64,000 nucleotides of DNA. Source: Paludibacteraceae bacterium (GTDB taxonomy: Bacteria; Bacteroidota; Bacteroidia; Bacteroidales; Paludibacteraceae). Shown in pieces: positions 7,166 through 28,176 of this stretch. Both the position numbers and the translations under genes were made by a program. Below the pieces are notes generated by a model. It made no database searches. It saw only the letters and a list, made by a program, of their open reading frames with translations, and had not been told where the DNA came from. Where the stretch lies: the NCBI GenBank assembly GCA_017444065.1, contig JAFSXJ010000018.1, positions 1,778 through 65,777 of the forward strand. Direction: 5' to 3'. Within the stretch, counting starts at the first letter, position 1; every line of letters begins with the position of its first letter.

Positions 7166-7184
7166 ACAAGTCAAACAGGATTAT

Positions 7185-8285: not shown

Positions 8286-8337
8286 GCCGCACAGCAGATC
8301 GACAAAGGTCGGCCAATCTTGGCCAACAGCAAAAAAG

Positions 8338-8371
8338 AACGGGGTTATCAGTTCGGCTGATAAACCCCGTT
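8338..8371. terminator. bidirectional hairpin terminator (galactanase / CDF transporter)
   Basis: AACGGGGTTATCAG-ttcgg-CTGATAAACCCCGTT, about 14 bp with one bulge, preceded by an A6 run. Overlaps the last codons of the minus-strand CDF gene. Confidence 0.5.
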
Positions 8372-9277
8372 TACTTTGAGTGGCTCGAGGTGGATGGTGA
8401 TGAGAGTATCCGCGCCGAAGCGCTCGCGCAACCGTTGCTCCAGCAGCATACTGTGCTGATGCGCCTCGTAGAGCGACACACTGCCGCGCATCCTCAGGTG
8501 CATCTCTATCGAATAGACGCTGCCCACACGGCGCGTACGCAGGTGGTGCATCTCGCTCATGTCGCTGTCGGCATTGACGATCTCACCTATCTGCTGCTCC
8601 ACCTCTTCCGGCAGGCTCTTCTCCAGCAGGTCCTGCACCGCATCATACAGCAGCTTCGCCGCCGTGACGATGATGAAGATGCTGACGAGCACCGCCGCTA
8701 TCGGGTCGAGTATAGCCCATCGTCCGCCTAACAGCAGTGCGCCGCCGATGCCAAACGCCGTCGCCACCGACGACAGGGCATCGGTACGATGATGCCAGGA
8801 ATTGGCCTTGAGCGCCGACGAATCCACGCGTTTGGCAACAGCAACAGTCAGCCAATACACCGTCTCCTTCGCCACTATACTGATGAGCGCCGCCCAAAGG
8901 GCTATACGACCGGGTATGACCAATTGTTCGCCTTGCAGGGCTGCTATAATCTTCTCCACCCCTTCGACCAGCAAGATACCGCCTGCAGCCAACAGGGCGA
9001 TTGCCACGATAGCAGTGGCCAGTGTCTCGTACTTGCCGTGACCGTACGGGTGGTCGGTGTCCGCCGGACGGCTGCTGAGCTTGACGAACAGCAGCACGAC
9101 AAAGTCCGTCAGCAGGTCGCTGAGCGAATGCACGGCATCGGCAATCATCGCCGTCGAGGCGCCCAGCACACCGGCAACGAACTTCAGCACGGTCAGCAGC
9201 ACATTGACCACACTGCCAAGGATGGTTATACGGTAAATCTCTTTCTCCCGCGAGGGAGCAGATGCGTGTTGATGCAT
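8348..9277 (-). CDS. cation diffusion facilitator (CDF) family metal efflux transporter
   Basis: 309 aa with six hydrophobic segments, HSLSDLLTD and HHRTDALSS motifs, and a C-terminal cytoplasmic domain. Confidence 0.85.
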   Translation of the reverse strand: MHQHASAPSREKEIYRITILGSVVNVLLTVLKFVAGVLGASTAMIADAVHSLSDLLTDFVVLLFVKLSSRPADTDHPYGHGKYETLATAIVAIALLAAGGILLVEGVEKIIAALQGEQLVIPGRIALWAALISIVAKETVYWLTVAVAKRVDSSALKANSWHHRTDALSSVATAFGIGGALLLGGRWAILDPIAAVLVSIFIIVTAAKLLYDAVQDLLEKSLPEEVEQQIGEIVNADSDMSEMHHLRTRRVGSVYSIEMHLRMRGSVSLYEAHQHSMLLEQRLRERFGADTLITIHLEPLKVNGVYQPN

Positions 9278-9400
9278 TTTATTGATAATGGTAGATGATT
9301 GTTGGTAATTGTTGCTTTACCTGGTCGTCAGCGAGTTGTCGGCGGTCACAAAACAAGCGTCCTTTCGGGCGCTTGTTTTGTAATCATGCCTGACAAAGGG

Positions 9401-12400
9401 TTACTTAACCACGAGCTTAGCGTGATATTCGCCCTTGCTGTCGGTCAGACGGACGAGGTAGATACCTGCAGCCGGCATGCCCGGGAGGACAACCTGACCG
9501 GTGGTGAACTGCTGCTTGTAAGCCACAGCACCCGTAGCGGTGATCACCTCAACCTCAGCATTGCTGAACTGACCGAGTACGCGTACATTCTCACCTACGC
9601 CAACCGGGTTCGGCGTCACAGCGAGGGTGTTCGCAAAGATGTCATCAACACCGTCTGCGTTATCCACGTTGATAACCACCGTTGCCTCACCGCAACCGAG
9701 GGTAATGCTACGTGTGTAAACGCCGCGCTCTGTACCCTGCGGCAACAACTCGATACCATTGAGGACGTACGGCAACCTGTCAGAAGCGATGGTGTCGTAA
9801 ATCTCAAAGGTCTGAGCCTCGGTCGGTTGAGCTACCATCAAGTGGAGCGTTACAATCGAGTCGCAGCCATAGACGGTCTTCTGCTCCGACGGATAATCAC
9901 CCGCCTTCGACAGACCGGCGAATACGCCGCTGTTATATACCTCACCCTGGCAGATAGTTCCGCGGATGATAGTACTTACATTCGGCACATTCTTAATCTC
10001 TACCGCTATAACGCTATCGCATCCCATAGCATTCTGGATGGTGTCGGTGTAAACACCGGCCTCCTTCAGTTCAGGATACTTAGCCGAGAAGTTGTATGTA
10101 GCACCCGGGCAGAGGAATACTTCCTCAGTCTCACCTACCAGAATCGGAGCTACCGTCAGGTAAAGTGTTACTATACTGTCACAACCATTCGACGCCGCGC
10201 CATAGAGCGTATCGGTCTTGATGGTGTTGGTGTAATACTTCTTGTCATTGAACTCGAAGTACGAACCTTGACAGATGGTCTTCTCAACAATCTCACGTTG
10301 CTTAGCAAGCACGGTAAGTGTGAGCGTAGCAACCGAGTCGCACGTGTTGGTTCCTTGGAGTTTGCGACGATATACACCGCTCTTCGGCTGCGAAATCTCG
10401 AAGTCATTGAGCATGTATGTCTCGCCCTCACACAAGGACTCCTCAAACGTTGTCTCAGTCATACCGGTTACGGTCAACTCCATACGAGCGAGCTTATCCT
10501 TCTCGTCATCCTTGGTTGCCTGAGTGAACTTCTCATATAGGGTTGTCTTCCCAACCTTGAGGTTCTTAGCATCAATAGTGAAGTTGTCATCCTCATACTC
10601 AGTCCACTCGCAGACGGATTCAGCATACTCAGCTTTGGTGTAATAGTTGAGTTGTACATTATCCAAATACAAGTAACCGTTAACCGTGGTGTGATATACA
10701 TCCGTACCGAACATGATGCGGATAACTTGACCGTTGTACTTGCTCATGTCAATCGACCAGCGAGTACCCTTCTTCAAGTTCGAGATAGCACTGAACGGAT
10801 AATCACAACCGGCAGTCGTACCCCAAACGGTGCGATTCTCCTCCGGATAGGTCAGACCTCCATCGGTTGAAACAAGTACCATGAAGAATACACTATCCTC
10901 TTGAGCCAACGCCTTGTTGGGAATCGTCATGTCGAACGACAGAGCAATACTATCAGCCGAAGCGACATCACTCAGGTCAATCTGCGGCGTAGCCAGCCAA
11001 CGTTTCCAACTACCCATCAGATAAGATGACATATACGGACCGTACATATTATCGTCATCAGGACTGGACTTGCGCTCCCAACTATTGGTGTTAGTTGCAC
11101 GCATGTCGGCATAGTTGTACAACGACCAGTTAGCCGGTACTGTACGTTGCGCGCTGAATTGCTCCGTGAAGCGGATTGTGTAAAGCGTCGTGAACGACTT
11201 CTCTGCAAACTCCGACTCTTGTTGCTCAGAGCAGATGTGCTTAACGCGTACGAAGTACTCAGTAGCAGGCTTGAGATCCGTCAAGGTCTGCGAGAGAGCC
11301 TGAATGGTATCAGAGAATACCACCTTCGTTGTATCTTCAAAGTCCTTATCCGTACTTACCTCAACAAAGAAGTTCTCCACGCCTTTCGGGATAGTCCAGT
11401 TAACCGTGGCCGAAGTCTTAGTGATTTCGTTTACGGTAATGGAACTTATCTCCGTACAAGTCTCTGCATCGATGATTGAGAGTTCATCAATATAGAAGTA
11501 ACTTGCAGCTGCCGGCTTCGGGGCCAAGAAGGCAATAAACTCACCACCCTTGTAGTTCTTGAGATCAAGGATGTACTCTTGCCAATAATAGTTATTGGCC
11601 TCGCAGGAATCCTTAGACAGATTACTCTCCTTCAAGACAGGCCATACGTGGTCGTACGTAATCGTATCGACAGGCACGAAGGTCTCCAGATTGTTCGGAT
11701 CGCTCATCGTACCAACAACCAACTCACGCAGATAACCGTTATTGACGGCGTTCAAGAACGTCTTGTTGGTACTATTGAACGTCTTATTGAACCTTGCGGC
11801 ACGGCCATAGAAATGAAGGATTGTACTATCACGGTTGACATCAAGCGGTGGCAATACGGCGTATGCATTGTAGTTCGATGTAGAGGTATAGAACTGCAAA
11901 GCACGATCGCTGGTTGTCATAGTTTCTTCTTTTGCCAGGATAACAGAAGCTGTATTTGCAGCAGCCTGCGGGAAGTACGAATATGAGGTACCTGCACCAA
12001 GAACTGAAATCCAGCATTCAGGAATCTTAATTGTAGAAGTACCGGCTTTTTGGTCAACCAACTTATCCGAGAAGCTCCATGTTGCATGCTCCTTGTCGTA
12101 CGGATCACAATCGGTTGTGAACTCAACTGAAACCTCTGCACTCTCTTCTGATTCGCTACATACTTTCTTTACTTTGAAGATATAGGAAGTATTAGCGAGA
12201 AGCGTATCATTACTGTACGCACGCTCAGTAACGGTGTCACGGATAACTTGCGCCTCGTTCTTTGTTGTCGAGAGCAAGATTGCCCATTCACCCTCACCGA
12301 GTTGCCACGAGAACTTTGCGGCATGTGCACCAAGCGAATCCAATTCTAGACGGTTAGGCGTATGACATACGCTACCAGCCTCGCGGAAGTCGATTTGGTC

Positions 12401-15400
12401 AATCCAAACATTATTGGAGTTGCCATACTCAGACAAGAATGTGATGTATTTGCCTTCGCCGATGCCCTTCAGAGGAACAGAGATCTCATTCCAGAACTCA
12501 TTTCCGGAAGCATCTTCCGAAGCTTTAGCTGTTGAGCTACTGAGAGCAGGTAACTGAATGTCAGCCAATTCAATGAAAGTCTCAATCTTATCCGGATCAG
12601 TAACATAACCTACCTTAATAGCACGTGGATAGGCAGCTGTAGCATACGTACCGCTGGTGGCTGCACTCGAGGAAATAGTCAGAGCACATAAGCGAGCCCA
12701 GAAGTGCAATTCCTTGTCTTCGAGATTACCGTTAATCTGAGGCATGATTGCATACGCGCCATCGCTGTTGTTCGTCGATGACACGAACGACTGGATATAC
12801 AACGCACCATTACGAGCTACTTTCTGTCGGCCATAAGAAGTTGTAACAGCCAAGGTTGTAGTATTGACAGCATTGAACTGCAATTTAGGAATGTAAGATG
12901 CAGATGTAGCATACTTGCTGCCTACCGTCCAGCCAAGCGGCAGGAGGTTACCGGTCGTTTGCGAAACGTAGTTATTCTGCCTATCAAAGTCCCAGGAAGC
13001 ATCAGCAAGATCTACAACATAACGTGTAGCGAGGATAGTTCCAGCAGACCAGTTGGAGGTCTTACCGGCACCATCATTGGCGCGCACGTAGAAGTCATAT
13101 TGCTTGTTGCTGTCGAGACCGGTAATCTCCAGCGTATCTTTGTCGGTAGTAACAATCGTTACATCTGCCAAAGCGCCACCGGCTTCGATATATCCTACAT
13201 CAACCTTCGGAGCATTGAAGCGGTTCGTCCATGTAACAGTGATGGAGTTCTTCGACGAAGCGACACCTTTCACTGCATTCGGAGCATACAAACCAACAGC
13301 TTTCTCGACATAGAGGTTGTCAATGTTCATATAGCTGGAAGCGGATGCATACGGATACAAGATAGCAATATACTTGCCTTGTGCCCCCTTCATCGGCACG
13401 GAAATCTCCTCCCACCAATCATTGCCACGCGGGTCTTCATCAGTAAAGATAGTATCCTTTGCAGAGAGAACCGGTGCCAATTCAAAAGCATCAATCAGTT
13501 GGAAACTATTAATATCCGTCGGATTGCTTACTGTACCTATTTGGATAACACGTTGGTTCGTAACTTTCTGATAACGTGTAGATGGATCACCTGTTGTGGT
13601 TACGCCTGTCGGCTGGAAGTTCGGAATTTGTTTATCTTTTGTTCCTATACCGGACGTCATCATACGAGCTTGGAAACGAATCTGAACGGTATCCAGATCT
13701 ACCGGTGCATTAGCTATATTATCATATAAAACAGGTAATACTACAAATGCGCTATCGTTAGCAGCACTATAAGCTTGCATATACAACGCACGCGTGTGAC
13801 TAGCATCATGATCGTACGAGTAAGCATATACTGCGGTAGCTGCAGTCGGGTCTTGACGCACATACGGGTAATACGATGCACCTGTTCCCTTACCCAGACC
13901 GGAAATCCAGCCTTCGTGAATCTTATAGCTGGTACTATTACCCGGCGTCATCTCAGTCGGTTCAGCCTCGAAGTCAGTGAAGAACGGATAAACAGCCGTA
14001 TTGAGGGTCTTCATGGTAAGCGGACCTACCCAGAAGCTGACATCGCCGTTACCACAGTTGGCACGCACGTAGAGGTCATATTCCGTCTTGGGCTGCAAAC
14101 CTCCCACCAGTGCAGTGGTCTTATCAACCGTGGCAGCAGGAATAGTATTCGCGTCCGGCACTTCGCCCTTCGTCATAGCCACTACATCCCAGTTGGACGC
14201 AATCGTATCCGTCCATGAGAAGCCAAGTGAGTTCAGTTCGCGTGCAGCAGCAACAAGTGCCTCTGGCTTCTTACATGTAGCATCCGGCTCTACCGACATA
14301 TTGTCGATATAGAAACCGTACTTGGTTGTATTCGAGTAAGTAGTGTAACTAGAATTAGCTCTTAATACGATATACTGCTCTCCGTTGACTGCTTCTGACA
14401 ACTTACGCTGATATTGTTTCCAGGTATTGTTTGCACTAGAAGTAATTTTTTCTACGACTTCATCTACCCAAATAACAGTATTGAGTATTGAATCTAAATT
14501 CTCAGCATTGGAAGCAACACCTATTCTCAAGGTATCAACGTACGTAGAGCTATACGTATAATGCTTGTAGTCGAAAGCAAGGATAGCATTCGAAAGGTCA
14601 GCATCAAAGCGCGGAAGAACAGTATAAGATGCGACCGTCTTCGAGCCACCGATATACAAGCCACCTACACCGTCCTTCTTGGCAGAGTTATACACGGTCG
14701 GAGTTATACAATCCGCACCTACCGTACCATCGCTACCGAATGCGCCCCAACATTGAGGAGTATTCTTGTAACTCGTAGAAGACGAGCCCTTGTCAAAGTT
14801 CTCACTCCATGGCAATTTCTGCGAAGGCGGACACTCCGTCGTGAACTGACGCCAGTTAGACCACGGGCTGTAGTTCTCGCCATACTTTGCACGAACCTTT
14901 ACATAGTAGGTCTTAAGCATAACGAGGTTACTCATTAGTACAGAATCAGCATTGACTGCTATCGGAGTTGCAGATGCGAGCGAAGTCAGTTTATCAGAAT
15001 ATGCATACTCGTAACTATCTGCCTTGGTGTTCTCCCAACGTAACTTGATAGCGTTCTCGCCTATCGAATCAGCCCAGATCTCCAACGGTTCAAGATAAGC
15101 AGAGATGGAATCGAAATAGATGTTGTCCAACTCAATCTTGTTAGAATTCTCACCGGACTCACTGATAAACATAACGAACCGGCCAAAGTCTTCGTTGTAG
15201 TCACCTTCATATTCGTTGAAACGAACAGTATATGCCTCATGGTCATCTGCATCTGCTGCCATCTTGAATTTGATCACATTCAATGGCACAAACGTAGACA
15301 AATCTTCCGGATTGGTAATAATACCTACCGTTACCTCATTGAGAGGATACGAAGCCGTGCTGTTCCATGCATCGAAAGTAACTTGCAGATATTGGAGACT

Positions 15401-18400
15401 ATCAATATTCAACTGAGGAGCAATAGTGTATGCACCATCAGTAGAAGCTGAACTATTGATAAGCTGTATGTGCCCGTTCAGGATGTTGTGTGTACCGGAT
15501 CCCTTGCGATCACCGAATTTCCAGCAGCCATCATCTGAGCCGGAGAAGCTCTCAGCTTTGTCTCCATTGCTACCGAAGCTATCAATATCACGAGCAGTAC
15601 AGATGGTCTTGAAGCCAAGTGGTGCAGACCATTCGCCATATACATCTTCTCCACATACGGCACGGAGATATACATAATATTGAACATTAGCCTCTATAGC
15701 AGCATCAGCAAGCTCAAATGGGTTAACCTCAATCAAGCTATCCAATACGATGCTCTCATCATGTGCAGCCAGCTGTCCTGCGGTTAGATTATTCTTCGTA
15801 GAAACCACAAACTGCCATTTCGCTGCATCTTTCTTATACCATGAGAATGTAGCGCCATTATGCTTAATGTCCTTTACCTTGATATTGAATACTTTCTCGC
15901 AATCAGGCAACTCTTTTACTTCTACATCATCAATCATGTAGTAGTGATTTGTAACCGGTTTGTAGAAGGCCAAATAGTTACCTTGACCTGCATACGAGGA
16001 GAGGTTTACAATATGCTCCTTATAGTCCATACCGGTCACCGTAAAGGTATAAACCGTATCGAAGGTTGCTATGTCATTTGGATCAGACATGACACCGACG
16101 TACAAAGTATCATCCACATACGAACTGATACCGCGGATATAGAACGACATCTGAAGCAATTTCAAGTCTTTCTCCAAACGTGGGAGTGCGGCATACATCG
16201 AGTCTTTGATAGAAGAATAACCGAGTTGCAAATAGACGTTTCCGCTATGTGCTGAACTGCTACTATTATATGCATGCGGATAGTAATAGGTGGAACTCGG
16301 TGCAGAGCCACTACCACTTGACGAATACTTCACTTGCGGAATTGTCCAACAATTCGGAGCCTCCGGCAAATTGGTATTTGTCGGAGCATCCTCAAAGCCT
16401 TCCTTATACGGAATCAACTCGAACGGAGCGCACTGCGTCTTAACGGTAAAGATATCCGACGGAGCTTTCTTCGCACCCACTAAGGTTGTGATCTGATACG
16501 TATAAGTCGTATGCGGCTTGAGGTTGTCAATAGTAAACTTATTGGTTTTGACCGTATCGCGGACAAAGAGTGCTTCATTCTCCCAAACCTCCGATATTGC
16601 CACAGCCCACTCGGTCATACCATTGGCATCCCAAGTGATAGTGATGGAACTATCGGCTGCGACAGCCTCCACATTGAGCGGTTTGATGCAATCATCGAGC
16701 GCGCTGATGGTTACGTCATCAATATTACCATAAGCCAATTTACCGGCAATCGTATTCGGACCATCCACCAGACGAATTGCAATATATCGAGCGTCACCCT
16801 TGTAATTCAAAAAGATCACCTCGCCTTTCTTCCATACGCCATCCTGCGCATCGTTATATTCCTTTATGAGTTCAAACGTGGCCGTATCCTGCGGGTCGGT
16901 CATGACACCTACTTGATAATACGGTTGTGAGTAGCCGGAACCCATAGCGTCCTTATAGTAGAACGTGAACATCTTGTTTTGCACACTATCCAACTGCGGG
17001 AATACAGCATACGGGCTGAAACTATTGCGTTTGTTGAGGTGATACGAATAACTACCACCATGCGCATTGGATTCAGTCGAACCATTTCGATAACCGTCTG
17101 CATAGTGGAACACATGCGAGATTATACCATCTACCAAGTATCCCAATGTTCCCGGAGTTTGGCTGGTATAATCCCAAATCTCCTCGTAACTATAGGTCGG
17201 TTTAGTCTCAAAATCCCAGGTCTTAGGCAACGCTGCTGAAGACAACGAGTTTGGCATCATATACTTCTGTGCATACGACCATTCGCTCTTCTCCTCGCCA
17301 TTAACTGCCTGTACGTAAACACGAATCCACTTACCCTCCATGTTGGTAAGTGTTACCAAGGTATCCTTAATTGCAGCAGGGATGTTTTCATACTTAACAA
17401 GGATATTGGCCGGTTTAAGTTTATCTACTTCTTCCGTTTTTACATCCGATACTATGAGATTCCATGATGTAGCATTAATGAGTGAAGGCTCGACTACAAT
17501 AGTAGTAGGAGTAAAATCTTTTACCTTGATATCCACCGGACGAGCAACTTCTTTCAGGGAGCCTATAGTAACTTCGTCCACAAAGAAAAGCAATTGCTCT
17601 TCAAAATCAGCCGCAAAAGCAATATACTTACCATTTCCGGTATATTTATCAAACTTAACGCGGAAGAAATCAAACTTGTACTTATTGATTGCATAGCATG
17701 TATCAACCGGTACAAACGTAGAATAATCCGCTGGGTTATCCATGACGCCGACAATAATACCGGAAGCATAATGCTCGGTAGCACTATACTCTCTGTCATA
17801 AAGATAAGGAGTTCCCCAGAAGTCCACATAGGCATCCTGAATGCGGTCGATATCTATCTCCGGCGAAGCGGCGTATGCATACTCTCCTGCCGGGAGAACC
17901 TTCGCATTAATAGCCGCAGCAAACTCCAATGCAGGAGTAGCGTTAGGGGAATAGTTCTTCCATGATGTTTCCACGCGGTAGTTAGTGAGATACGGAATAG
18001 CCCTCATCGTAACACCGTCACTCTCACGCATACTTGTACCATACGTCCAGTTTGGTGCCTGTGAAGGATTGTCCTTGTTATAAGGTGCATCAAAATGCTC
18101 TACGAAAGGCAACTGGACTTTGTTAAGCGTTTTTATCTCTGCACCGACCCATTGGCCTTCCAAAGCAGGGCAATACGCCTTGACATAAATGTAGTATGAC
18201 GTGTTGATATCCAGATTCTTCAGGGTGTCAACAAAGTCATACACAAATGCATGACGGATGATAGCCGTATCAGCCCAATCCACTTCCTCAACTGAAGTGT
18301 AAAGCTTTTTGGATACGACCACTTCAAACGAGTCGGTATCCAAGCTACCGCCCCATTCGATGATCGCCTCATCACCGGAAAGCGAACGAGCATGGATATC

Positions 18401-18976: not shown

Positions 18977-19047
18977 ACCTTAAAGATTTAGTTAATAATA
19001 TAATGAACTCCTTTTTGAGTTTTCTATCTGATAGGGCAATCGTCCCA

Positions 19048-19974
19048 TTATTTCCAACACATACAATGCTTCGGCTTGGGCGTAACATCAAATAACACCG
19101 TCAACCTCAGTCCCACACGGATTCGCTGCACCTCAGCATCCGTAAGCGGAGTATCCAGCATACTATTGAAGCGAATATTCTCCTTCACATCCTCCTGAGA
19201 TTGCAAATACGGCGACTTGTTCACTGCCGAGTAATCCACCAACTGTGTAGCATCACGCTCATCGAACTGCGCGAGCGGCAGGTCGTAACCAAAATATACT
19301 CCTGCCCGCATGCGCACTTTCTTGGCGTTAAGTGGTATATTCACGCCGACTTCAGCCTCCAATGCCATCTCATTGGTGGCGGAGCGCATTGTACCGGTTC
19401 CGCTATACTCGTCCTCCGACCAAAAGCCGTAGTACGGTGCGTCACGGAACGGCTCGATGAAACGATCATACTCGCCTTGCACGTACATACGCGTGTGCGT
19501 TCCTATTTCATTCATTAGCGGCTTGATGCGCAGCGAAGCGCCTACGCCTACATACACGTAGTCACCGAACTGATACCCCACCTGTAGAGGAATGAGGAGA
19601 CGCAACTGACGCTGCTGCTCAGCATAATCGCTGTAGTTATATCGGTACACATGCGCTTCGCCCGTACGGTCCACACGCCCGAAGGCGTCTGTATATGTAT
19701 CCAACGCAGTATTGGTCAAAATATAATCAGCACCAAAGCCTACATTGAAGAAGAATCCTCCCGTACGCAATTCGTACATCAGGTGTCCTCCACCGCCTCC
19801 ACCGGCTTTGAGGATGATGTTGTCACTGCCCGGCAGGGCATTCGCCTCAACACCTGTCAGACTCAAACCTACCCAATGTGATACCGTCGCAGACTTATAT
19901 TGGCGCGGTGCAGCCACTGACAATCCTGCCAGCAGCAATGCGAATAGCATTATATATACACGTCTCCTGTTCAT
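19048..19974 (-). CDS. outer-membrane beta-barrel protein, paralogue of the N-terminal half of the 599-aa OmpA-family protein
   Basis: The ORF track gives 19048-20106, but the signal peptide MNRRRVYIMLFALLLAGLSVAAP starts at ATG 19974. That ATG overlaps the upstream stop (ATGA, 19971-19974). Alternating beta-strand pattern and a poly-Gly loop GGGGGG. Confidence 0.7.
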   Translation of the reverse strand: MNRRRVYIMLFALLLAGLSVAAPRQYKSATVSHWVGLSLTGVEANALPGSDNIILKAGGGGGGHLMYELRTGGFFFNVGFGADYILTNTALDTYTDAFGRVDRTGEAHVYRYNYSDYAEQQRQLRLLIPLQVGYQFGDYVYVGVGASLRIKPLMNEIGTHTRMYVQGEYDRFIEPFRDAPYYGFWSEDEYSGTGTMRSATNEMALEAEVGVNIPLNAKKVRMRAGVYFGYDLPLAQFDERDATQLVDYSAVNKSPYLQSQEDVKENIRFNSMLDTPLTDAEVQRIRVGLRLTVLFDVTPKPKHCMCWK

Positions 19975-22900
19975 TGTATCACAATCTTTACTGCCTGACG
20001 AGTAGCCGGGCGAACGAGGATATATACACCAGGTGTAGTTACAACCGGTCTGTCGTTTGTCACGGACTGCATAATCACGCGCCCCATAACATCCAACAAC
20101 ATCCATTCGCCATCATCCGCAATGGTTACATCTTCAACGCCAGCCAAGCCTCCATTATATACAATCGGGCAAGCCGTAACCGTTACCCCATCTGTAGAGC
20201 GCGTAAGGACGGCAACATATTGTGCACCCAAATCCTCTTCTCCGACAACGAGGTACGACTCATTGGCGCCACGTATCAATTGGCCATTTCGATACCACTG
20301 ATACCCATTAAACTCATACCCTCCATTATATTTGTCGTTCAGCAGCGCAATTATACCATCTTTTTGTGCGATGATGGATGCCGGATAATTTACCACAACA
20401 ACCACCGGCACGTCTGGCACTGGGCAACGCGGCGTGCCCAGTTGTAGTATGGCAGGATAATAGCCCGGAGTCACATTTTCCGGCAAGTCTACCCGCACCT
20501 CATCATCTGCGCCGAAAGCATAGACTGAATCAAAGCCCGCACTACTTGCAGATGCATCAAACAATAAGTGAATACTATCCAAACGCCCTTGAACAACTTG
20601 CAATGGTAATACAACCGCAGTTTGGTCTCCACATACGGCAAATGTGTCAGCCAATTCAATGATAACTCTGGGCTCCACGTTCAGCGTTAGCGTAACTATA
20701 CTATCCAATCCCCATTGGTTAGTCAGGATAACCGTATAAGTTCCTGATTCGGTAAATGTCTTGCCGCCAACCTCATACGCCCCTCCCTGACATAATGAAT
20801 CGGTTTGATCGAAATAGCGCTCGTGGATATACACATGTACCAACTCTTCACATCCGTTGTCAATGTACATCGTATCGAACTGATATGGATTCCAATATAC
20901 CTTACCGTCATATACCGAGCCGACAGACAAATGCACCTCTCGTTCAGGCAGGCCAACATCAGCCAGCTCTATACGGATTTGTTTTGTTGCAAAACAAGTT
21001 GTATCCCTTCCATTCAGATAAGCGTACAATGTAGCCACATATACGCCACCTGTATCCGGATAGATATGCGATACATACTCTTCATCAAGGGCAGACTGTG
21101 TACCATCGCCAAAATCCCATAACACGTGATCTACTCCTTCGCTACGCGTGAATGTCCGTTCTGAAACTTGATTCTTATAGTACACGCACGACGTGTTGTG
21201 GAAAGTCACCTCATTCTGACATTGCACTACACGCGATGTTGCTTCAGCCTCAGCCACGGGGAAACGCGGAATGCCGCAAGCCTCCATGGTGTAATAGCAA
21301 TTGCCATTCGACTTGGAGATAACATCCACATGATAGGTGGCCGTATCCATCGGCTCAATGGTAAAGGTCTGGTTACGTGAAAGGATTGTACCAGGTTTCG
21401 ACGGCAAATACCAAGCATAATTGAACCCTGATGGAGCGGTAAAAGTAGTTGTCGGATTATCTTCTCCGCAGTTCTGGCCGGACATCTCGCCCGATTCGCA
21501 ATCAAGTGTAAAATAGGCATAAGCTCCGTGTGCCGACATCTTACAACCGGTTATCATCAGACGCACCGTAATAGTCTGCCCCACATAGTCACGCAGGTTG
21601 ACGGCCATCTCGGTCCAGTCTTTCCAAGTAATAGTTTCACTATTATATTGGGTACTCTTCCAACCTGAATTAGCAGCACCGGCAACAAAATCTGCCAAAC
21701 CGCAATTGTGCTCCAATGCACGACCGTTAGCCAACACTTCCAGTTTAAAGGTCGGGTTGTCCTGCGGCTCATGAGGTGCCGGAAGCACAACGGCATATCG
21801 AATCTTCAGAATTGCCTTGTCACCGGTCGGCACATGATATTTATACTCGCATGCTGCGCCAAAAGTAGGTGCATAGCGCCCTAGACGAACAGATGCTATC
21901 GCATCCTCCGGCTTAGTTAGCAATGTGCCATCCGTATAAGGGTCACGCTCACCCGGCACATAATGCAATGTGTGTAGTGAGTTGTCGTAATCCGCATAAC
22001 CGAAATCCACCACTTGCGGACTACCCAGAGGTACATCTTTTGTGCCGACGCGACACGTTTGGGTACTCAAGTCCATATAATCGATGCAACGTACACCTTT
22101 ATGGAACATAAAGAAACTATATTTCACATATTGCCCGACGCCCTCTTCATTCGTGCAATGCGAGCGAACATATACATCATGGAATCCTTCCGACAAATTG
22201 TACAATGTTACACGCGGCAGACGCAAGTCTGATTCTGCACGCCACTGCCCGGTCTGATAATCATACGACCGCACATCAAACACCGATGCGCCATTCTTGC
22301 TCCATTCAATTGTGGCACTGGCATCCTTATTTATCTTATGCTTAAAGTTGGATGGCAACGGGCAACTTCCCTTGGTCACAATCTCTATATTGTCAATGCA
22401 AGCCGATGGTAGCGCTGCACTGCCACGCGTGCTGAACCATACGAAAACCAGTTTACGGGTTTGCTCCTCCTGCAATGAGAGTTCTATATGCCCTAAATCC
22501 CACGAAGAGGCGCCATGGAAGCAATCTGCTAATACATAATCTTCCTCCTTTGCCCAATTGGGTAGGTCGGCAGTAGCTTTATTGGAGTTGGTTACAACAT
22601 CTGTAGGCACCCACAGGATATAGAATCCTTCTTCGCCCGACCGTTTGCCGTTGCAACGCCAATCGAAGAAGAAATCGTATTCTCCGGCAGGTATCGTTAA
22701 TTCACGATAGGAAACAACAAACATCGTCTGCTCTGCCGAGTACGTCGCATCGTTTCCGTCAGTGGATATATACAAACCATATTCGGCATCCGGAGCATGA
22801 TTACCAGGCGCACCAATATACCATTTGTTGATGCAACTTGCACCCTGTTTGCCCACATTCAACATCCACTGAGCGCGCTCTGCTTCATCCTCAAAGTCAC

Positions 22901-22976
22901 ATTGATACACAATTTGTGCAACCGCCGGTACAGACAGCAGAATAAGCAATGCTATGTATAAATACTTTCGCAACAT
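19971..22976 (-). CDS. T9SS-sorted multidomain surface protein (about 1001 aa), paralogue of 24786-27968
   Basis: The ORF starts at TTG 22982; the likely ATG is at 22976 (MLRKYLYIALLILLSVPAVAQ). N-terminal jelly-roll-like domain, FN3, a central domain ending YAYFTLDCESGEM, a PKD-like segment (WDFGDGTQ), Cys modules (CQGGAYEV...LDSIVTLTLNV), and a C-terminal sorting-like tail (GVYILVRPATRQAVKIVIQ). Confidence 0.85.
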   Translation of the reverse strand: MLRKYLYIALLILLSVPAVAQIVYQCDFEDEAERAQWMLNVGKQGASCINKWYIGAPGNHAPDAEYGLYISTDGNDATYSAEQTMFVVSYRELTIPAGEYDFFFDWRCNGKRSGEEGFYILWVPTDVVTNSNKATADLPNWAKEEDYVLADCFHGASSWDLGHIELSLQEEQTRKLVFVWFSTRGSAALPSACIDNIEIVTKGSCPLPSNFKHKINKDASATIEWSKNGASVFDVRSYDYQTGQWRAESDLRLPRVTLYNLSEGFHDVYVRSHCTNEEGVGQYVKYSFFMFHKGVRCIDYMDLSTQTCRVGTKDVPLGSPQVVDFGYADYDNSLHTLHYVPGERDPYTDGTLLTKPEDAIASVRLGRYAPTFGAACEYKYHVPTGDKAILKIRYAVVLPAPHEPQDNPTFKLEVLANGRALEHNCGLADFVAGAANSGWKSTQYNSETITWKDWTEMAVNLRDYVGQTITVRLMITGCKMSAHGAYAYFTLDCESGEMSGQNCGEDNPTTTFTAPSGFNYAWYLPSKPGTILSRNQTFTIEPMDTATYHVDVISKSNGNCYYTMEACGIPRFPVAEAEATSRVVQCQNEVTFHNTSCVYYKNQVSERTFTRSEGVDHVLWDFGDGTQSALDEEYVSHIYPDTGGVYVATLYAYLNGRDTTCFATKQIRIELADVGLPEREVHLSVGSVYDGKVYWNPYQFDTMYIDNGCEELVHVYIHERYFDQTDSLCQGGAYEVGGKTFTESGTYTVILTNQWGLDSIVTLTLNVEPRVIIELADTFAVCGDQTAVVLPLQVVQGRLDSIHLLFDASASSAGFDSVYAFGADDEVRVDLPENVTPGYYPAILQLGTPRCPVPDVPVVVVVNYPASIIAQKDGIIALLNDKYNGGYEFNGYQWYRNGQLIRGANESYLVVGEEDLGAQYVAVLTRSTDGVTVTACPIVYNGGLAGVEDVTIADDGEWMLLDVMGRVIMQSVTNDRPVVTTPGVYILVRPATRQAVKIVIQ

Positions 22977-22983
22977 TTCCAAT

Positions 22984-24783
22984 TTACAATATTACAAACT
23001 CTACACGGCGGTTTTGTGCACGACCTTCCTCTGTGTCGTTGGTAGCGATAGGTTCGGTCTTACCCTTGCCTTCCGCCTCGATGCGGTCAGCCTTTATACC
23101 ACGGCGTATCAGGTCGTCACGCACGCTGTTGGCACGTTGCTCTGACAGGCTTTGGTTGAAGCGGTCGGTACCCACGTTGTCGGTATGACCGGTAATCTTG
23201 ATACGCATTTCAGGATACTCGACGAGCAAGTTGTACAGGTTCTGCAGTTCCGGCTCGGACTCCGGCAGGATGATTGCTCTGTTCGTAGCAAAGAACAAGT
23301 TGCGCAGTACGATCGGCTTCTTCTTGATAATAGGCTCCAAGCGATAGGTCACCTCACCGCCGATATCCGCTATCTTCTCGGTAACGGTAATATGATCCGT
23401 TGCCTTGATGCGGATACTAATCGGCAAGTTGATCGGCAAGTGCTGCTGCGCATAGCCTGTTATCGAATCGGTTCTGACGGTAGCAATCGTCTTCTTCTCC
23501 GCCGTGTTGGTGAACGTCACTTCAGCTGCCAATAGCGAGTCTGTCTTGGCGTCGCGCACATAGAAGCGGAAATCCGGACGCGGCGTCAGGCGCAGCGACA
23601 TAGTATCACCCCATTCGCCATGCTCCATCGATGCATCCGAAGCTATATAATCCGGATGCGTAACGTGCAGGTCGTACGAACCGGCATTCATCTTCGCCAC
23701 CATCGCGCCCTTGGCATTCGTAGCACGGCGGATAGTGCGGGGTTTCTTAGCATCGGTCTGCGTCATCGCCACAGTAGCCGAAGCTATACCCTTATCCGTA
23801 TTCTCATCACGTACAAATACCACCATTGTCGGCTTGGCCGGCTTGGGTTGCTGGGGTTTGTTCATCTGCAGCAAGGCGGTGAACTTCACGCCGACCAACA
23901 AACTGTTCAACCCGCCATTAGCCCAATACGAGGTGTGCAGCGAACGACTGGATATGCCATTCTCATCCACAATAGCCATCGGACCTTCCTGCGGCTGTCC
24001 CATACTGAGTATGCCATAGTCGGCAAACACCGCGGCACGTATATGAAGCGGGTACTTGCGAGCATTGTTGCGGTCATTCCAGTCCTTGCTCATCAAGCCG
24101 TTGATATTCACTCCCACCTCGGCACTGACTGCCACATCCAGACCGTAGCCTACCTTACCCTTTTGGGTGTATGGCGCATCGGTGACCGTACCGTGACTTA
24201 TATCGTGCCAATTGGGATCCTGTGCATCATTATCCGTGATGGTTGTCGTATAGGTGCCCTTCTGGCTGTAGGTGCCCAGTACCGTGTATCCGGCTTTCGC
24301 TCCAGCCAGAAAGTACCACGTATCCCATCGTCCACCCAACATGAGCGGGACCATTGCCTGCCCTACCACATGATTCTCGCGGAACGGACTACCGAACGTG
24401 TAGTTCATCGTCTGATTGTAACCATCCGCCATCAATGCCACATGGTAAGCCGAAGGGAATGTTACCTTATCCATCGAACTGAAGAGACGGAACTCTGCAC
24501 CGGCATCCAAGATGAAATGGTCGTAACGGTATTCATATCCCACACCCAGCAGGCCACCACCGCCTCCGGCAAACTTGTTATACTCGTAGGAGTTAACCAA
24601 ACCGCTATAGCTAGCACCGCCCCAGAAAGCTACGTGGTGGATGTTACGCGTGGCGCCTTTCCATGTCTTGGCAGAAGACGTTTTACTGCCCGACGATTTC
24701 TTTGCCGGTGCTGCTGTAAGCGTTTGGCTAAACAGCAAGCATATACCAAGTATGTAACAGATACTCCTCTTCATGCTCATCAT
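22984..24783 (-). CDS. OmpA-family outer-membrane protein: N-terminal beta-barrel, carboxypeptidase-regulatory-like domains, C-terminal OmpA peptidoglycan-binding domain
   Basis: Signal peptide. The barrel region is paralogous to 19048-19974 (GGGGG loop, AEVGVNI). Ig-like segments (VRDENTDKGIASATV..., FYVRDAKTDSLLAAEV). OmpA_C motifs (NLFFATNRAIIL, TGHTDNVGTDRFNQSLSEQRA, NRRVEFVIL). Alternative ATGs at 24780 and 24774. Confidence 0.85.
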   Translation of the reverse strand: MMSMKRSICYILGICLLFSQTLTAAPAKKSSGSKTSSAKTWKGATRNIHHVAFWGGASYSGLVNSYEYNKFAGGGGGLLGVGYEYRYDHFILDAGAEFRLFSSMDKVTFPSAYHVALMADGYNQTMNYTFGSPFRENHVVGQAMVPLMLGGRWDTWYFLAGAKAGYTVLGTYSQKGTYTTTITDNDAQDPNWHDISHGTVTDAPYTQKGKVGYGLDVAVSAEVGVNINGLMSKDWNDRNNARKYPLHIRAAVFADYGILSMGQPQEGPMAIVDENGISSRSLHTSYWANGGLNSLLVGVKFTALLQMNKPQQPKPAKPTMVVFVRDENTDKGIASATVAMTQTDAKKPRTIRRATNAKGAMVAKMNAGSYDLHVTHPDYIASDASMEHGEWGDTMSLRLTPRPDFRFYVRDAKTDSLLAAEVTFTNTAEKKTIATVRTDSITGYAQQHLPINLPISIRIKATDHITVTEKIADIGGEVTYRLEPIIKKKPIVLRNLFFATNRAIILPESEPELQNLYNLLVEYPEMRIKITGHTDNVGTDRFNQSLSEQRANSVRDDLIRRGIKADRIEAEGKGKTEPIATNDTEEGRAQNRRVEFVIL

Positions 24784-24785
24784 CC

Positions 24786-27700
24786 CTAATCTATTACACC
24801 TACACGGCAGACACGCGTCTCGCCTCCAATTGTTACTTGCACGACATATAACCCAGCCGGCACATTCATCACGACTTCGTTTGCCCCTTCTTTCAGGTCG
24901 ATGGTTGTCACCACATCGCCAAAGGTATTCACGATGGTTGCCGTAGCCGGAGCACTAACCATAATCGTCAGCTTGCCGCCCGATTGAACGGGTGAGGGGT
25001 AAACATACACGACTACTCTATCCTCTTCGCGAACAGGGCGGAACGGACATGTTACCACCGTCTCACCGTTATGCACACGAGTCATCTCAAGATGATACGT
25101 AGCCTCCGGGTCTAAACCTTGGGCTTCATACAAGTATGATAACGTTGCCCCTTCGATAGGCTCGTTATCCTTAAACCATTGGTAGTTCTCGAATATATGG
25201 GTAACAGAATCGGTCTCCAATGCACTGAAGTTCTTAAGCGAAAGCACATCATCCCAACGCTGATATACCCAACCCGGCATACATACACTTACTTGCGCCT
25301 CACGCAACACTGAGCAACCAAAGTCATTGAAGAACTCCAACTCAAAGGAGCCGCCATTCAAGCCTGTTATCGAATCAGCAGTTTGTGGATAACCTCCGTT
25401 AACGGTGTAATAATCAAACCCTTCTCCATCGATATAGATAGCACCGGAACTTGGATTGTCATCCATCTCGCGGACACGCACTTCAGGCTTGATTGAATCC
25501 AGCACGGTTACATTCCACTTGCAGACCGAATCGCAATCATATATATTTTTGTAGAACACAGGGAATACATCAGAGTATGAGTATTTGTACCTTTGACCGT
25601 CAATAATTAACGGTGTTTCAGCACAGACTATTGTATCCCCTACAAATCCCTCATAGACAGGGTTGACTGTCAGATTCAAAGACACAATACTATCGCAGCC
25701 GGCAATAGTCTTCAAACTATCCGTATACACGCCGGTCATTCCTGCATAATAACGGCCGAATACAACATACTCACCATCGCATATTGAGCCGTTGACAGTA
25801 ATACTTGTATCACCAATCGCAGGTATATCAATATAGCCTGTTATCTCATCGGAACAACGGCCTTCTGCTATTGAAGAAACCAATTTTACAGGGAAGCGGC
25901 CGCCCTCCAACGGATACGTCACAACAGGATTCTTATCTGCACCGACTTGACCATTGCCAAAGTCCCACTCATACTCATCGCACGGCTGATCGTAGTGATA
26001 CTCTACCACATCATTGTACTTGGTCATGATGTGGCTTTTATTCTTGAACTTTACCCTGTTCCTACAATCCGAAGGCGCATATTCCCAATCAAACGCAGCA
26101 ATCGGGAAACGTGGACGAGCAGACGAATAGAGGTCAAAACCGCAAGACTCTTCCTCCAAATATGTCAGGTGGCAACGATAAGTGGATGTATCTGATGCCG
26201 CAACCAACAGCGTCTGACCATTATTGGCCAGCCGGGTCTCAGGCACCACATTATTCGCCGAGTCAAACCATTGATACGCAAAGCCATCCGGTGCAGCTAT
26301 TGACATCTCTGCATCATCGCCACAACTTGTTCCGACAATGCGCGCAGCAGCGCAATCAAGCGTAAAGTAAGCGTAGCCATAGTGACCGCCCCAATCACAG
26401 TCGTACGTTGTAAGACGAACCGTAAGGGTATCACCGTTCCAATCTTTACCATCCTCTGTTTCTCCAAGATTCAAGCCAATGGTTGTCCAGTCCTTCCAAG
26501 TTACCATATTGTAACCGCTACCCTCCGTATGCCATCCTTCACGCATTGCATCTGCATAAAAATCCGCAAAGCCGCAAGTCGGGCTGATTAGTTCACCATC
26601 ACTGCCAATGATTTCCAAAGTAAAACGAGGCTGATCTTTCAATGTATGTTGCGGATCTTCCATCACCACAGCGTAGCGAACGAGCAAAATTGCAGCATTC
26701 TCAGTATCAACAGCATACTTGAATGACAAGCTTTCAGCTTGCGCCCCTACATTCCAGTTGCCCAAACGGACGGAAGCTAATGCGCCTTCCGGAACCATTA
26801 GCAACTTACCACGAGTACGAGGATCAGTCACATCCGGCTCCCAATTGACCACATGACGAGAGTACTTGTCATCGTTGCCATAATCAATAACCCCCACACT
26901 TTCATACGGATTGGCATATGTGCCATAGGTAGCCAGTACATTCGGGTTGTTCTCAAGATGTACATAATCGATGCAATGACGGTCGGGATAATAAACCGCG
27001 AATGAGTTCAAATATGTATAAGCACTATAGTTTGCTCCGTTATCATCATAGCAAACGCCCCGCACTCGTATATCATACGCGCCTTCCTCGACACCTTCAA
27101 TGATGAAGGTCTTGTCTTCCACTCCGGATTGAACCTGCCACTTATTGCGGCCATATTTACGATACTCAACAATATACTCCTCACTACCACCTTCCCATTT
27201 CACAATAACAGAATCACCGATTATATCTGCGGAGACGGAGCGAGGTTTGGAACACACCCTGGTAGTAATCTGAATATTATCCACGCAAGCTCCTATCGCC
27301 GACATTGTTGTATCGCGATTACTATTCTGCCAAACGAAGAAAAGACGTAATGTGCGGGTTCCATTTGAAGAAAACTGGAAAGACGTATTCTTCCATTTCG
27401 AAACGCCACGCACACGCAAAAGCCCCTTACCCTCCTGAGAAACATACGTCATTAGGTTTTCGGGCATCAAAGTCGTAGGACCACCTACCATTTCAGCCGC
27501 CGTCGAAGGGCAGACTCCGGCCGACAGTATGGCATCCGGCGCACCTATGCATCGGAAATCAAAGGTGCAATCATACTGCCCGGCAGGCAGAGTAAATTCA
27601 CGGTAGAGATACTGCATATTTGTGGTTGTGGCAAAGTTAGCATCTTCACCACCATTCGTGGAGATATACGCAGAACGCTTACCATCACTATGCGTTGCTT

Positions 27701-27968
27701 TTCCAACCACCCATTGGTCTTTCAACTGGTCTGTACCCTCTCCGGGATTGAATACCCAGTTAGCCAACTCCGCCGACTCCGACTCTTCAAAACTGAATGC
27801 ATACGGAACGCTAATGGCTGTTTGACCATACACGGATATACAAAAAAAGGACAGACATGCCACCAGCACAGCACAAGCGCTGCGGCGTGAACGCAGAAAT
27901 TGTCCTCTATGTAACTCGATATTTTGCATTATTTTATTCATCACTAAAAAAGCCATACTAATACTCAT
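24786..27968 (-). CDS. T9SS-sorted multidomain surface protein (1060 aa), first gene of the operon
   Basis: Signal peptide ending FFCISVYGQ; several in-frame ATGs (27968, 27956, 27941, 27929) leave the start uncertain. Same architecture as 19971-22976: central domain ending YAYFTLDCAAARI, PKD-like WDFGNGQ, Cys modules CDGEYVVF...GCDSIVSLNLTV. Type-A-like CTD: VYPSPVQSGGKLTI...GLYVVQVTIGGETRVCRVGVID. Confidence 0.85.
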   Translation of the reverse strand: MSISMAFLVMNKIMQNIELHRGQFLRSRRSACAVLVACLSFFCISVYGQTAISVPYAFSFEESESAELANWVFNPGEGTDQLKDQWVVGKATHSDGKRSAYISTNGGEDANFATTTNMQYLYREFTLPAGQYDCTFDFRCIGAPDAILSAGVCPSTAAEMVGGPTTLMPENLMTYVSQEGKGLLRVRGVSKWKNTSFQFSSNGTRTLRLFFVWQNSNRDTTMSAIGACVDNIQITTRVCSKPRSVSADIIGDSVIVKWEGGSEEYIVEYRKYGRNKWQVQSGVEDKTFIIEGVEEGAYDIRVRGVCYDDNGANYSAYTYLNSFAVYYPDRHCIDYVHLENNPNVLATYGTYANPYESVGVIDYGNDDKYSRHVVNWEPDVTDPRTRGKLLMVPEGALASVRLGNWNVGAQAESLSFKYAVDTENAAILLVRYAVVMEDPQHTLKDQPRFTLEIIGSDGELISPTCGFADFYADAMREGWHTEGSGYNMVTWKDWTTIGLNLGETEDGKDWNGDTLTVRLTTYDCDWGGHYGYAYFTLDCAAARIVGTSCGDDAEMSIAAPDGFAYQWFDSANNVVPETRLANNGQTLLVAASDTSTYRCHLTYLEEESCGFDLYSSARPRFPIAAFDWEYAPSDCRNRVKFKNKSHIMTKYNDVVEYHYDQPCDEYEWDFGNGQVGADKNPVVTYPLEGGRFPVKLVSSIAEGRCSDEITGYIDIPAIGDTSITVNGSICDGEYVVFGRYYAGMTGVYTDSLKTIAGCDSIVSLNLTVNPVYEGFVGDTIVCAETPLIIDGQRYKYSYSDVFPVFYKNIYDCDSVCKWNVTVLDSIKPEVRVREMDDNPSSGAIYIDGEGFDYYTVNGGYPQTADSITGLNGGSFELEFFNDFGCSVLREAQVSVCMPGWVYQRWDDVLSLKNFSALETDSVTHIFENYQWFKDNEPIEGATLSYLYEAQGLDPEATYHLEMTRVHNGETVVTCPFRPVREEDRVVVYVYPSPVQSGGKLTIMVSAPATATIVNTFGDVVTTIDLKEGANEVVMNVPAGLYVVQVTIGGETRVCRVGVID

Positions 27969-28025
27969 TAGTAAAAGATTTAGGTTAAGGCGACAAAAAC
28001 CGCGGCAAAGTTACGTAAAATTTCC

Positions 28026-28033
28026 CAAAATTA
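28026..28033 (-). promoter_or_regulatory. candidate -7 promoter box (TAATTTTG on the minus strand) for the T9SS-cargo operon
   Basis: Plus strand reads CAAAATTA, whose reverse complement matches TAnnTTTG. About 58 nt upstream of ATG 27968. Confidence 0.3.
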
Positions 28034-28162
28034 CAACTTTTTGACTCCAAAAATCGCGATTTTCATACATTTTATCACACAAACATAGCATTTTATATTC
28101 ATTTTGCGCATGTGCGATGGATGTTTCACGGCAAAATATTTGCATATTTCAATAATTTTTCG

Positions 28163-28170
28163 TACCTTTG
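28163..28170 (+). promoter_or_regulatory. candidate -7 promoter box TACCTTTG immediately upstream of ubiE/menG (very short or absent leader)
   Basis: TAnnTTTG match ending 6 nt before ATG 28177. This argues against the TTG 28168 start in the ORF track. Confidence 0.3.
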
Positions 28171-28176
28171 CAGTCG

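Follow-up and report, generated by a model that had tools for sequence, protein, structure and literature searches.

Do the five large genes that follow one another on the minus strand of a Paludibacteraceae contig encode two secreted proteins, each with its own outer-membrane barrel and followed by a giant adhesin, or do they encode a single surface system? The window that we analyzed is the whole 64,000-nucleotide (nt) stretch of contig JAFSXJ010000018.1 (assembly GCA_017444065.1), and within it the five genes, which we call cargo-1, OmpA-barrel (a barrel fused to an OmpA_C domain), cargo-2, barrel-2 (a stand-alone barrel) and giant, are consecutive and co-directional (Table 1). The open reading frames (ORFs) agree in coordinates and junctions with an initial annotation that had been made from the letters alone: the junctions are, in order, 2 nt, 7 nt, a 4-nt ATGA overlap and 71 nt, and all five proteins have signal-peptide-like N-termini. 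That annotation took the locus for a tandemly duplicated unit of a type IX secretion system (T9SS) cargo and a dedicated barrel, followed by the giant protein. We lean towards another view, in which the operon would encode a single cell-surface system of several components, found in gut and rumen Bacteroidales, in place of two cargo-barrel pairs that act independently.

About 70 loci of rumen and gut Bacteroidales, which we designate by L numbers, contain these parts together. At all close barrel-2 homologues examined, which are among L001–L007 (43–92% identity), the five-gene order is identical and the flanking genes vary; the order of the window is shared by 14 of 14 loci from GTDB species representatives, which come from rumen Paludibacteraceae or uncultured Bacteroidales metagenome-assembled genomes, and also by L029. 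These nearest relatives take the place of the Prevotellaceae setting that had been assumed at first. When metagenomes were scanned with a profile for the barrel domain of OmpA-barrel, 54 loci from rumen and animal-gut samples emerged; their genes were taken as stop-to-stop ORFs and classed by BLASTP to the window proteins. A cargo-like gene is present in the cluster for 34 of the 36 OmpA-fused barrels that have at least 1 kb of upstream sequence. Since close homologues share the five-gene order and distant ones keep a cargo-like gene at this frequency, the barrels are not randomly placed porins.

Outside the closest relatives the order is permuted. Writing C for a ~1000-aa cargo, O for an OmpA-barrel, B for a barrel of the CxC family described below and G for a giant, the window type is C-O-C-B-G, and other lineages have G-C-B-O (L058, L059, L069, L074, L075), G-C-C-B-O (L067), G-C-O-B (L071), C-C-O-G (L036, L038), G-C-O (L044), C-O-B (L051, L056), C-C-O (L068), B-G (L077) and, with no cargo, B-O (L040). 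The giant gene stands at either end of the cluster, depending on lineage. Wherever an arrangement with a barrel also includes cargo, one or more cargo genes immediately precede the first barrel gene, and in many cases the stop codon of one gene overlaps the start codon of the next; such overlaps, or gaps of a few nucleotides, are conserved at the junctions of cargo with barrel. That the gene set is kept through many rearrangements is strong evidence of a shared function. Because other lineages permute the orders, for example with one cargo before both barrels, the duplicated unit of the window is one solution among several, and the barrel-to-cargo ratio is not 1:1; the proposed tandem duplication thus describes the window correctly and does not extend to the other lineages. 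On a pocket-mouse gut contig (L049), a five-gene operon (6605–20881, plus strand) lies beside a divergent mini-system (2–5935, minus strand) composed of two cargo-like genes and then a 297-aa CxC barrel.

We analyzed how segments of the five proteins co-vary by comparing pairwise distances across 16 complete loci, and found that inheritance is mosaic. The distances form two uncorrelated blocks, which we term passengers and chassis. The passengers, which are N-terminal stretches of ~770 aa in cargo-1, ~760 aa in cargo-2 and ~2,850 aa in giant, inter-correlate at r 0.92–0.95. The chassis, made up of the two barrels, the CRD and OmpA_C portions, the final ~220–270 aa of cargo-1 and cargo-2 and the C-terminal domain (CTD) of giant, inter-correlates at r 0.5–0.93. 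Between the blocks r is about 0–0.3, and it is about 0.1 for the barrels against the bulk of the cargo. The boundary runs through individual proteins: the C-part of cargo-2 correlates with its own N-part at r 0.06, and that of cargo-1 at r 0.27 with its own N-part and at r 0.80–0.83 with OmpA-barrel.

Sequence identities show the same division. Cargo-1 passengers are 25–65% identical between loci with 95–98% identical barrels, and 73–85% identical between loci of the same passenger type with distant barrels. Among L001, L019 and L020, the OmpA-barrels are 95–98% and the cargo C-parts 91–97% identical, and the giants, which are of three types, are 35–39% identical; L010 and L017 have barrels that are 98% and giants that are 37% identical. 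The window and L016 share a passenger type, with 83% identity in giant, 51% in the OmpA-barrels and 24% in the giant CTDs. In five close pairs the breakpoints fall at aa ~780–800 of cargo-1 and ~740–780 of cargo-2, positions that coincide with the end of the cargo-1/cargo-2 paralogy. Pairs with close chassis have flanking DNA that is 85–95% identical and passengers with little or no DNA similarity; therefore the chassis is the vertically inherited part and the passengers are the parts that were replaced. Rate variation was rejected as the cause of the cargo-barrel incongruence because the flanks agree with the chassis, and also because same-type giant passengers reach 83–84% identity in the same pairs in which the OmpA_C-bearing protein is 51–55% identical. 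In the window, GC content at third codon positions is 0.57–0.64 in the barrels and the C-end of giant and 0.45–0.49 in the passengers; the C-parts of cargo-1 and cargo-2 are also low.

Five passenger types were found in total, and they are concordant across all three proteins in 16 of 16 loci. The passengers are exchanged between species together, as matched sets of three. Such matched-set replacement suggests diversifying selection on exposed parts together with a mutual fit of the three passengers. That three passengers which are not contiguous change in concert hints at a need for them to match, for example through co-assembly or through recognition of one ligand class.

Linkage and co-variation together bear on the reading that the locus holds two independent duplicated cognate pairs, cargo-1 with OmpA-barrel and cargo-2 with barrel-2, in which each barrel serves only its upstream cargo and giant follows the standard pathway. 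Each cargo gene does lie directly upstream of a barrel gene, separated from it by 2 nt in one case and overlapping it by 4 nt in the other, and a distant locus (L026) retains a cargo followed by an OmpA-barrel. The C-part of cargo-1 has a partial r of 0.78 with OmpA-barrel given barrel-2 and of −0.18 with barrel-2 given OmpA-barrel, and between L007 and L018 a single replaced tract spans the cargo-2 C-part and barrel-2, leaving the cargo-1 C-part and OmpA-barrel untouched at 93–98% identity. We nevertheless regard independent pairs as unlikely. The orders G-C-B-O and G-C-O-B place one cargo before both barrels, C-C-O-G and C-C-O place two cargos before a single barrel, the two barrels co-vary (r 0.81), and the cargo-2 C-part correlates with both of them (partial r 0.53 and 0.42); moreover, a pairwise signal is predicted by adjacency alone. 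The initial proposal that each barrel is the partner of its neighboring cargo is supported by the conserved linkage and by the co-variation of the C-terminal modules with the barrels; one-to-one pairing and coupling to the bulk of the cargo are not supported.

The proteins that would be carried by this chassis resemble secreted adhesins. Cargo-1 and cargo-2 are paralogs, as had been noticed (31% identity over 802 aa, E 5e-87, BLASTP), and their likeness stops near aa 790, beyond which they share just a YQW[FY] module and the tail. Cargo-1 is built, in order, of a signal peptide, a jelly-roll, an FN3-like domain, a central beta-sandwich, a PKD-like segment, Cys modules, a C-terminal module whose pre-CTD segment bears a QRWDD..LKN / YQWF motif, and a type-A CTD; a phmmer search of cargo-1 against the Protein Data Bank (PDB) gave one marginal match in the PKD region and nothing else. 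In cargo-2 the PKD model passes its cut-off, and choice-of-anchor J (NF038128) scores 20.6 bits, below the cut-off of 30. Giant comprises a MAM domain, five choice-of-anchor-J domains (159.4 bits over five stretches, which passes the same cut-off), four FN3 domains, Cys modules and a type-A CTD.

All three large proteins had been assigned type-A-like CTDs at the outset. The assignment holds for cargo-1 and giant, which pass the cut-off of 23 bits for this ~70-aa domain (TIGR04183 / PF18962; 29.2 and 36.1 bits); for cargo-2 the domain is shortened and sub-threshold. The cargo-2 copy of the window gives no TIGR04183 match, its orthologues reach 19.4 and 21.9 bits (below cut-off, covering profile positions 17/22–72), and a full-length CTD is found in one orthologue, L004. 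Profile-profile alignment with hhalign matches the cargo-2 C-terminus to the CTD profiles of cargo-1 and giant over their final ~55 residues (E 1e-4 and 2.5e-4); the first two CTD strands are absent from the cargo-2 profile, so its tail is best understood as a truncated type-A-like CTD. Across related loci, TIGR04183 matches 20 of 31 diverse cargo and giant C-termini at E ≤ 0.01. The type-B CTD (TIGR04131 / CHU_C) matches none of these 31, nor cargo-1, cargo-2 or giant. In several loci (L049, L050, L052 and L063, cargo-1 orthologues; L067 and L071), some cargos end in a motif of ~25 aa like IIENQQLIILRNNVRYNAQG, which replaces the type-A CTD and has no NCBIfam match; the C-terminal sorting or anchor module itself thus seems to be exchangeable between lineages.

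The two barrels are barely recognizable as relatives by BLASTP (E 0.015). Aligned as orthologue profiles they match with a probability of 99.9% (hhalign, E 6.6e-36, 275 columns), with their poly-Gly, AEVGVNI and VG[VL][KR][FL]T blocks in line, which bears out the paralogy and the sequence blocks that had been pointed out. A search of 1.84 billion cluster representatives with the family profile returned 1,623 clusters at E ≤ 1e-3, of which 728 reach E ≤ 1e-10. With few exceptions, the 150 family matches listed are 260–450 aa long. All 139 short representatives examined have C-x(1-2)-C within the last 60 aa, and in 88 of the 89 in which the last-strand pattern matched it lies 6–9 residues past that strand. 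We define the CxC-tail family accordingly, as ~300-aa barrels with poly-Gly, AEVG and VG[VL][KR][FL]T blocks in which C-x(1-2)-C follows closely on the last strand. In barrel-2 this is the invariant C304/C306 (nt 19057–19065). OmpA-barrel fits the family profile but is without the tail: the mature protein has no Cys, and a Pro/Lys linker, CRD-like domains and OmpA_C occupy the position of the tail. An outer-membrane barrel has both of its termini in the periplasm, and therefore the CxC tail and the OmpA_C extension share one compartment. The barrels thus belong to a large family without an existing model, marked by its C-terminal CxC tail.

Domain searches are consistent with this placement. 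The OmpA_C domain (PF00691) at aa 497–592 of OmpA-barrel scores 79.2 bits against a cut-off of 27.2 and matches solved peptidoglycan-binding domains in the PDB at up to E 1.7e-21, which bears out the peptidoglycan tether that the initial annotation had put forward. The CRD-like region has a match to CarboxypepD_reg (PF13620) of 25.6 bits, below the cut-off of 32.3, at aa 322–383, which was recorded for several orthologues; OmpA-barrel comes in two lengths, ~600 aa and ~520 aa, that differ by one CRD-like repeat (L007, L018 and several P01xx proteins). The first ~310 residues have no domain-model match. Barrel-2 has a weak partial match to DUF7849 (PF25233), at best 20.4 bits against a cut-off of 27 and over 52 of 192 profile positions; it is similarly weak in 16 of 22 family members and absent from more distant ones. 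An AlphaFold2 model of barrel-2 from a 22-sequence alignment is a confident beta-barrel (pLDDT 88.3, pTM 0.75), and a search of PDB sequences with the barrel-family profile found nothing.

Several known families were considered for the barrels and rejected. The barrels are not PorP/SprF: neither of them matches that family (TIGR03519 / PF11751) at E ≤ 0.01, and across 22 family members of the barrels, no model for PorP/SprF, PorV, PorQ or any other T9SS component in Pfam or NCBIfam matches at E ≤ 1. The PorE model (NF052230) gives 86.5 bits with OmpA-barrel against a cut-off of 600, and the OmpA_C part alone aligns. PorQ and PorV are PorV-like, 14-stranded FadL-like barrels; barrel-2 was not found to have a FadL-type fold (FadL and TodX at probability 0.33–0.38, TM ~0.18).

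These results also weigh on whether the barrels might be transient PorV-like T9SS shuttles instead of stable anchors, with the cargos ending up linked to anionic lipopolysaccharide (A-LPS) or released. Type-A CTDs are present, and cognate shuttle barrels have been described for T9SS cargo (PMC12618676), but the barrels here are without similarity to PorV, PorP or FadL-like barrels, a peptidoglycan-tethered OmpA_C barrel is poorly suited to shuttling, and according to published work all type-A CTDs use PorV (PMC12618676). We consider a purely shuttling role quite improbable. Still less credible to us is that the barrels belong to the general OmpA-like proteins of the envelope and share the operon by chance, with no specific partnership. 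Most of the ~1,600 clusters of the family are stand-alone barrels, which are encoded among housekeeping genes, the barrels evolve independently of the passengers, and L040 has a barrel pair with no cargo. Chance would, however, have to account for a linkage that survives at least eight gene orders, barrel identities down to ~28–30% and 34 of 36 loci, for the conserved translational overlaps, and for neighborhoods that differ outside the module.

A central domain of ~250 aa had been reported as unassigned in the cargos, and it is indeed a real conserved module with homologues beyond the operon. The possibility that it is operon-specific was rejected, as it occurs right after the signal peptide in other proteins. 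Its AlphaFold2 model is a beta-sandwich (pLDDT 86.3, pTM 0.86), for which Foldseek matches carbohydrate-binding module (CBM) families CBM61 (2xom, TMt 0.61), CBM27 and CBM11 and MAM domains. As far as the models go, this domain, together with choice-of-anchor-J/MAM, FN3 and PKD, fits ligand- or glycan-binding surface proteins, not enzymes. On pig-gut contigs (L022:10001–15460) the beta-sandwich comes right after a signal peptide within a series of overlapping ORFs, the last of which encodes a CHU_C (type-B CTD) protein. There is no barrel gene in the vicinity, and the passenger module is therefore independent of type-A tails.

CBM61, the best fold match of the domain, is a beta-1,4-galactan binder, and a GH53 endo-beta-1,4-galactanase gene lies in the window at 7185–8285 (plus strand), ~1 kb from the operon. 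A link between the two as a conserved feature was rejected, given that the flanks differ in every other lineage; because the flanks are not conserved elsewhere, the proximity is probably coincidence. That the operon is a glycan capture-and-uptake device, in which CBM-like surface proteins feed ligands to the barrels as channels, draws on the fold matches and the nearby galactanase, and we dismiss it as highly improbable in view of the non-conserved flanks, of small barrels with no plug or TonB box, and of an OmpA_C tether and a 3191-aa fibre-like giant that point to adhesion and structure.

We propose that the parts work together as follows. Three Sec- and T9SS-exported proteins, built of glycan-binding-like beta-sandwiches, FN3/PKD domains and Cys modules, would form an exposed, ligand-binding part, and the two paralogous barrels would form an outer-membrane platform. 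One barrel carries a periplasmic extension of CRD-like region and OmpA_C, the peptidoglycan-binding domain, and the other bears the periplasmic CxC tail of the family. This platform would hold the secreted proteins, or hand them over, through their conserved C-terminal modules (pre-CTD segment and CTD), so that a vertically inherited chassis of barrels and cargo C-terminal modules could carry replaceable passenger cassettes. By analogy with PorP plus PorE and the type-B cargo PG1035, with SprF and SprB, or with PorQ and PorZ, the cargos would bind the barrels physically, which would then act as anchors or shuttles. In a more specific and tentative form of the proposal, which we hold to be possible but less probable than the unity of the system, the pair of CxC-family barrels, one of them anchored to peptidoglycan, may mount giant and accessory type-A cargo non-covalently by their C-terminal modules, with passengers swapped between species as co-adapted sets: a built-in system of adhesin or antigen replacement.

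A number of points weigh against this proposal. Type-A cargo normally loses its CTD to PorU and becomes attached to A-LPS, and therefore no barrel is needed. The 64-kb window, to which the search for the T9SS core was confined, contains none of its components (SprA/Sov, PorK/L/M/N, PorV, PorU). Most members of the barrel family are stand-alone, and they are often found in housekeeping contexts without cargo, including distant stand-alone CxC barrels in L003, L025, L066, L073 and L080. Foldseek relates the barrel-2 model to generic small 8–12-stranded barrels in the PDB (Legionella Dot/Icm porins, OpcA, the OmpA membrane domain and Ail; TMq ≤ 0.34), and the structure predictions are of single chains. 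The mosaic pattern comes from about six close-chassis pairs that are phylogenetically non-independent, so Mantel p-values are approximate. The C-terminal modules adjoin the barrel genes, and their co-inheritance may reflect linkage or recombination arms; the CTD of giant lies 9 kb from the barrels yet tracks the chassis, a result that a null of vertical inheritance except in passengers fits as well as binding does. The conserved chassis segments may merely be sites where crossovers can occur.

The remaining features of the locus concern its boundaries (Table 1). GC content is 0.45–0.50 across the operon and 0.55–0.60 in the flanks, and a cation-efflux gene sits downstream. Between cargo-1 and the divergent methyltransferase gene, TAACTTTG at 28006–28013 fits TAnnTTTG, the known consensus of the Bacteroides −7 box, and it is a putative promoter −7 box of the operon. 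Scans for sigma-70 promoters and terminators at the operon ends were uninformative, as expected for Bacteroidales, and an Rfam scan of the window gave no match. Elsewhere in the window, a division and cell-wall cluster (mraW, PBP/ftsI, murE ... mraY, murD, ftsW; 34896–59616, plus strand) is split by genes inserted between murE and mraY. The first ~12 kb of the insert (~39649–52000) is a low-GC island (0.35–0.44 vs ~0.55) with defense-type genes (YhcG PDDEXK nuclease, KilA-N, Abi_alpha, an Eco57I-like N6 methylase, Schlafen/AlbA_2, DUF4357/RAMA and RhuM), and a metallophosphoesterase and an FAD-oxidase/4Fe-4S gene lie between the island and mraY.

Table 1. Features of the operon and its upstream border, in window coordinates (aa, residues of the encoded protein)
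Feature	Position (nt)	Residues	Strand	Remarks
Cargo-1	24786-27968	1060 aa	-	
Cargo-1 passenger region	25629-27824	aa ~49-780	-	horizontally exchanged cassette
Cargo-1 central domain	26334-26981	aa ~330-545	-	CBM/MAM-like beta-sandwich
Cargo-1 C-terminal module	24789-25601	aa ~790-1060	-	pre-CTD segment and type-A CTD; inherited with barrels
Cargo-1 type-A CTD	24810-25004	aa 989-1053	-	TIGR04183
OmpA-barrel (OmpA-fused barrel)	22984-24783	599 aa	-	
OmpA-barrel beta-barrel domain	23854-24783	aa 1-310	-	followed by Pro/Lys linker
OmpA-barrel CRD-like region	23344-23829	aa ~319-480	-	
OmpA-barrel OmpA_C peptidoglycan-binding domain	23008-23295	aa 497-592	-	
Cargo-2	19971-22982	1003 aa	-	1003 aa from TTG; 1001 aa from ATG at 22976
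Cargo-2 passenger	20703-22910	aa ~25-760	-	
Cargo-2 C-terminal module	19974-20645	aa ~780-1003	-	ends in shortened type-A-like CTD, aa ~946-1003
Barrel-2 (stand-alone barrel)	19048-19974	308 aa	-	ATGA overlap of start with cargo-2 stop
Giant	9401-18976	3191 aa	-	
Giant passenger	10277-18904	aa ~25-2900	-	switches type along with cargo-1 and cargo-2 passengers
Giant type-A CTD	9404-9619	aa 3120-3191	-	
Intergenic region, cargo-1 to divergent methyltransferase gene	27969-28167		-	~200 bp, 5' of operon
UbiE-type methyltransferase gene	28168-28890		+	divergent, 5' of operon

In the current view of the T9SS, type-A cargo goes with PorV and A-LPS, and dedicated barrels are for type-B cargo only. If it is true that the barrels described here hold type-A cargo, the division between type A and type B is incomplete, and ~1,600 unannotated clusters of outer-membrane proteins gain a first functional context. 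The C-terminal parts of cargo-1 and cargo-2 (~220–270 aa) are marked as the candidate barrel-binding region, and the pattern of chassis and cassettes offers a testable picture of how the largest surface proteins of uncultured rumen and gut Bacteroidales diversify.

Our literature search found nothing specific on the operon, on DUF7849 or on the T9SS of Paludibacteraceae, and several studied systems provide comparisons. The sprCDBF operon of Flavobacterium johnsoniae, with type-B cargo and a PorP/SprF barrel, likewise combines a giant adhesin, accessory proteins and an outer-membrane barrel (PMC9143113, PMC12618676); there too the barrel gene comes immediately after a cargo gene, and a role in secreting and anchoring the cargo has been proposed for cognate barrels. 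The operon described here differs in that its barrels are of another family with no PorP/SprF match, its CTDs are of type A and not type B, and its two barrels are paralogs, one of them fused to OmpA_C. Complexes of SprF with SprB and of PorE, PorP and PG1035 are known (PMC9143113). The latter, from Porphyromonas gingivalis, brings together an outer-membrane barrel, a peptidoglycan module of CRD and OmpA_C, and a surface cargo (PMC9143113, PMC7192894), whereas in our case barrel, CRD-like region and OmpA_C are a single polypeptide with no TPR or WD40 domains.

PorU and PorZ retain their CTDs and sit on PorV and PorQ, respectively (PMC10202324), so that type-A-like CTD proteins are held at the surface on a barrel by an uncleaved CTD (PMC10202324, PMC10947112). 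These pairs are the precedent for barrel anchoring of type-A cargo, and in their light the statement of the initial annotation that such coupling had not been described was too strong (PMC10202324). PorU-PorV and PorZ-PorQ are, however, components of the machinery and not adhesins, while the genes described here are cargo-linked and lineage-variable. Autotransporters and two-partner systems follow a related logic, in which a C-terminal anchor and barrel are conserved and N-terminal passengers diversify and recombine; the differences are that the present system belongs to the T9SS, that the barrel is a separate gene and that three non-contiguous passengers change together. Bacteroidota OmpA-family proteins share the N-terminal barrel and the C-terminal OmpA_C with an intact NxxLSxxRAxxV motif, but the barrel here is of ~280 residues, probably with 10–12 strands, and belongs to the CxC-tail family, unlike the 8-stranded OmpA membrane domain.

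The barrel family and its fusion with CRD-like and OmpA_C domains in one polypeptide appear to be new, as do the systematic linkage of barrels to type-A adhesin-like cargo and the evolution by chassis and cassette. Because the defining models of the PorP/SprF, PorV/PorQ and PorE families were tested and did not match, the system falls outside these families, and it is with their cargo-barrel partnerships that its proposed mode of action has most in common.

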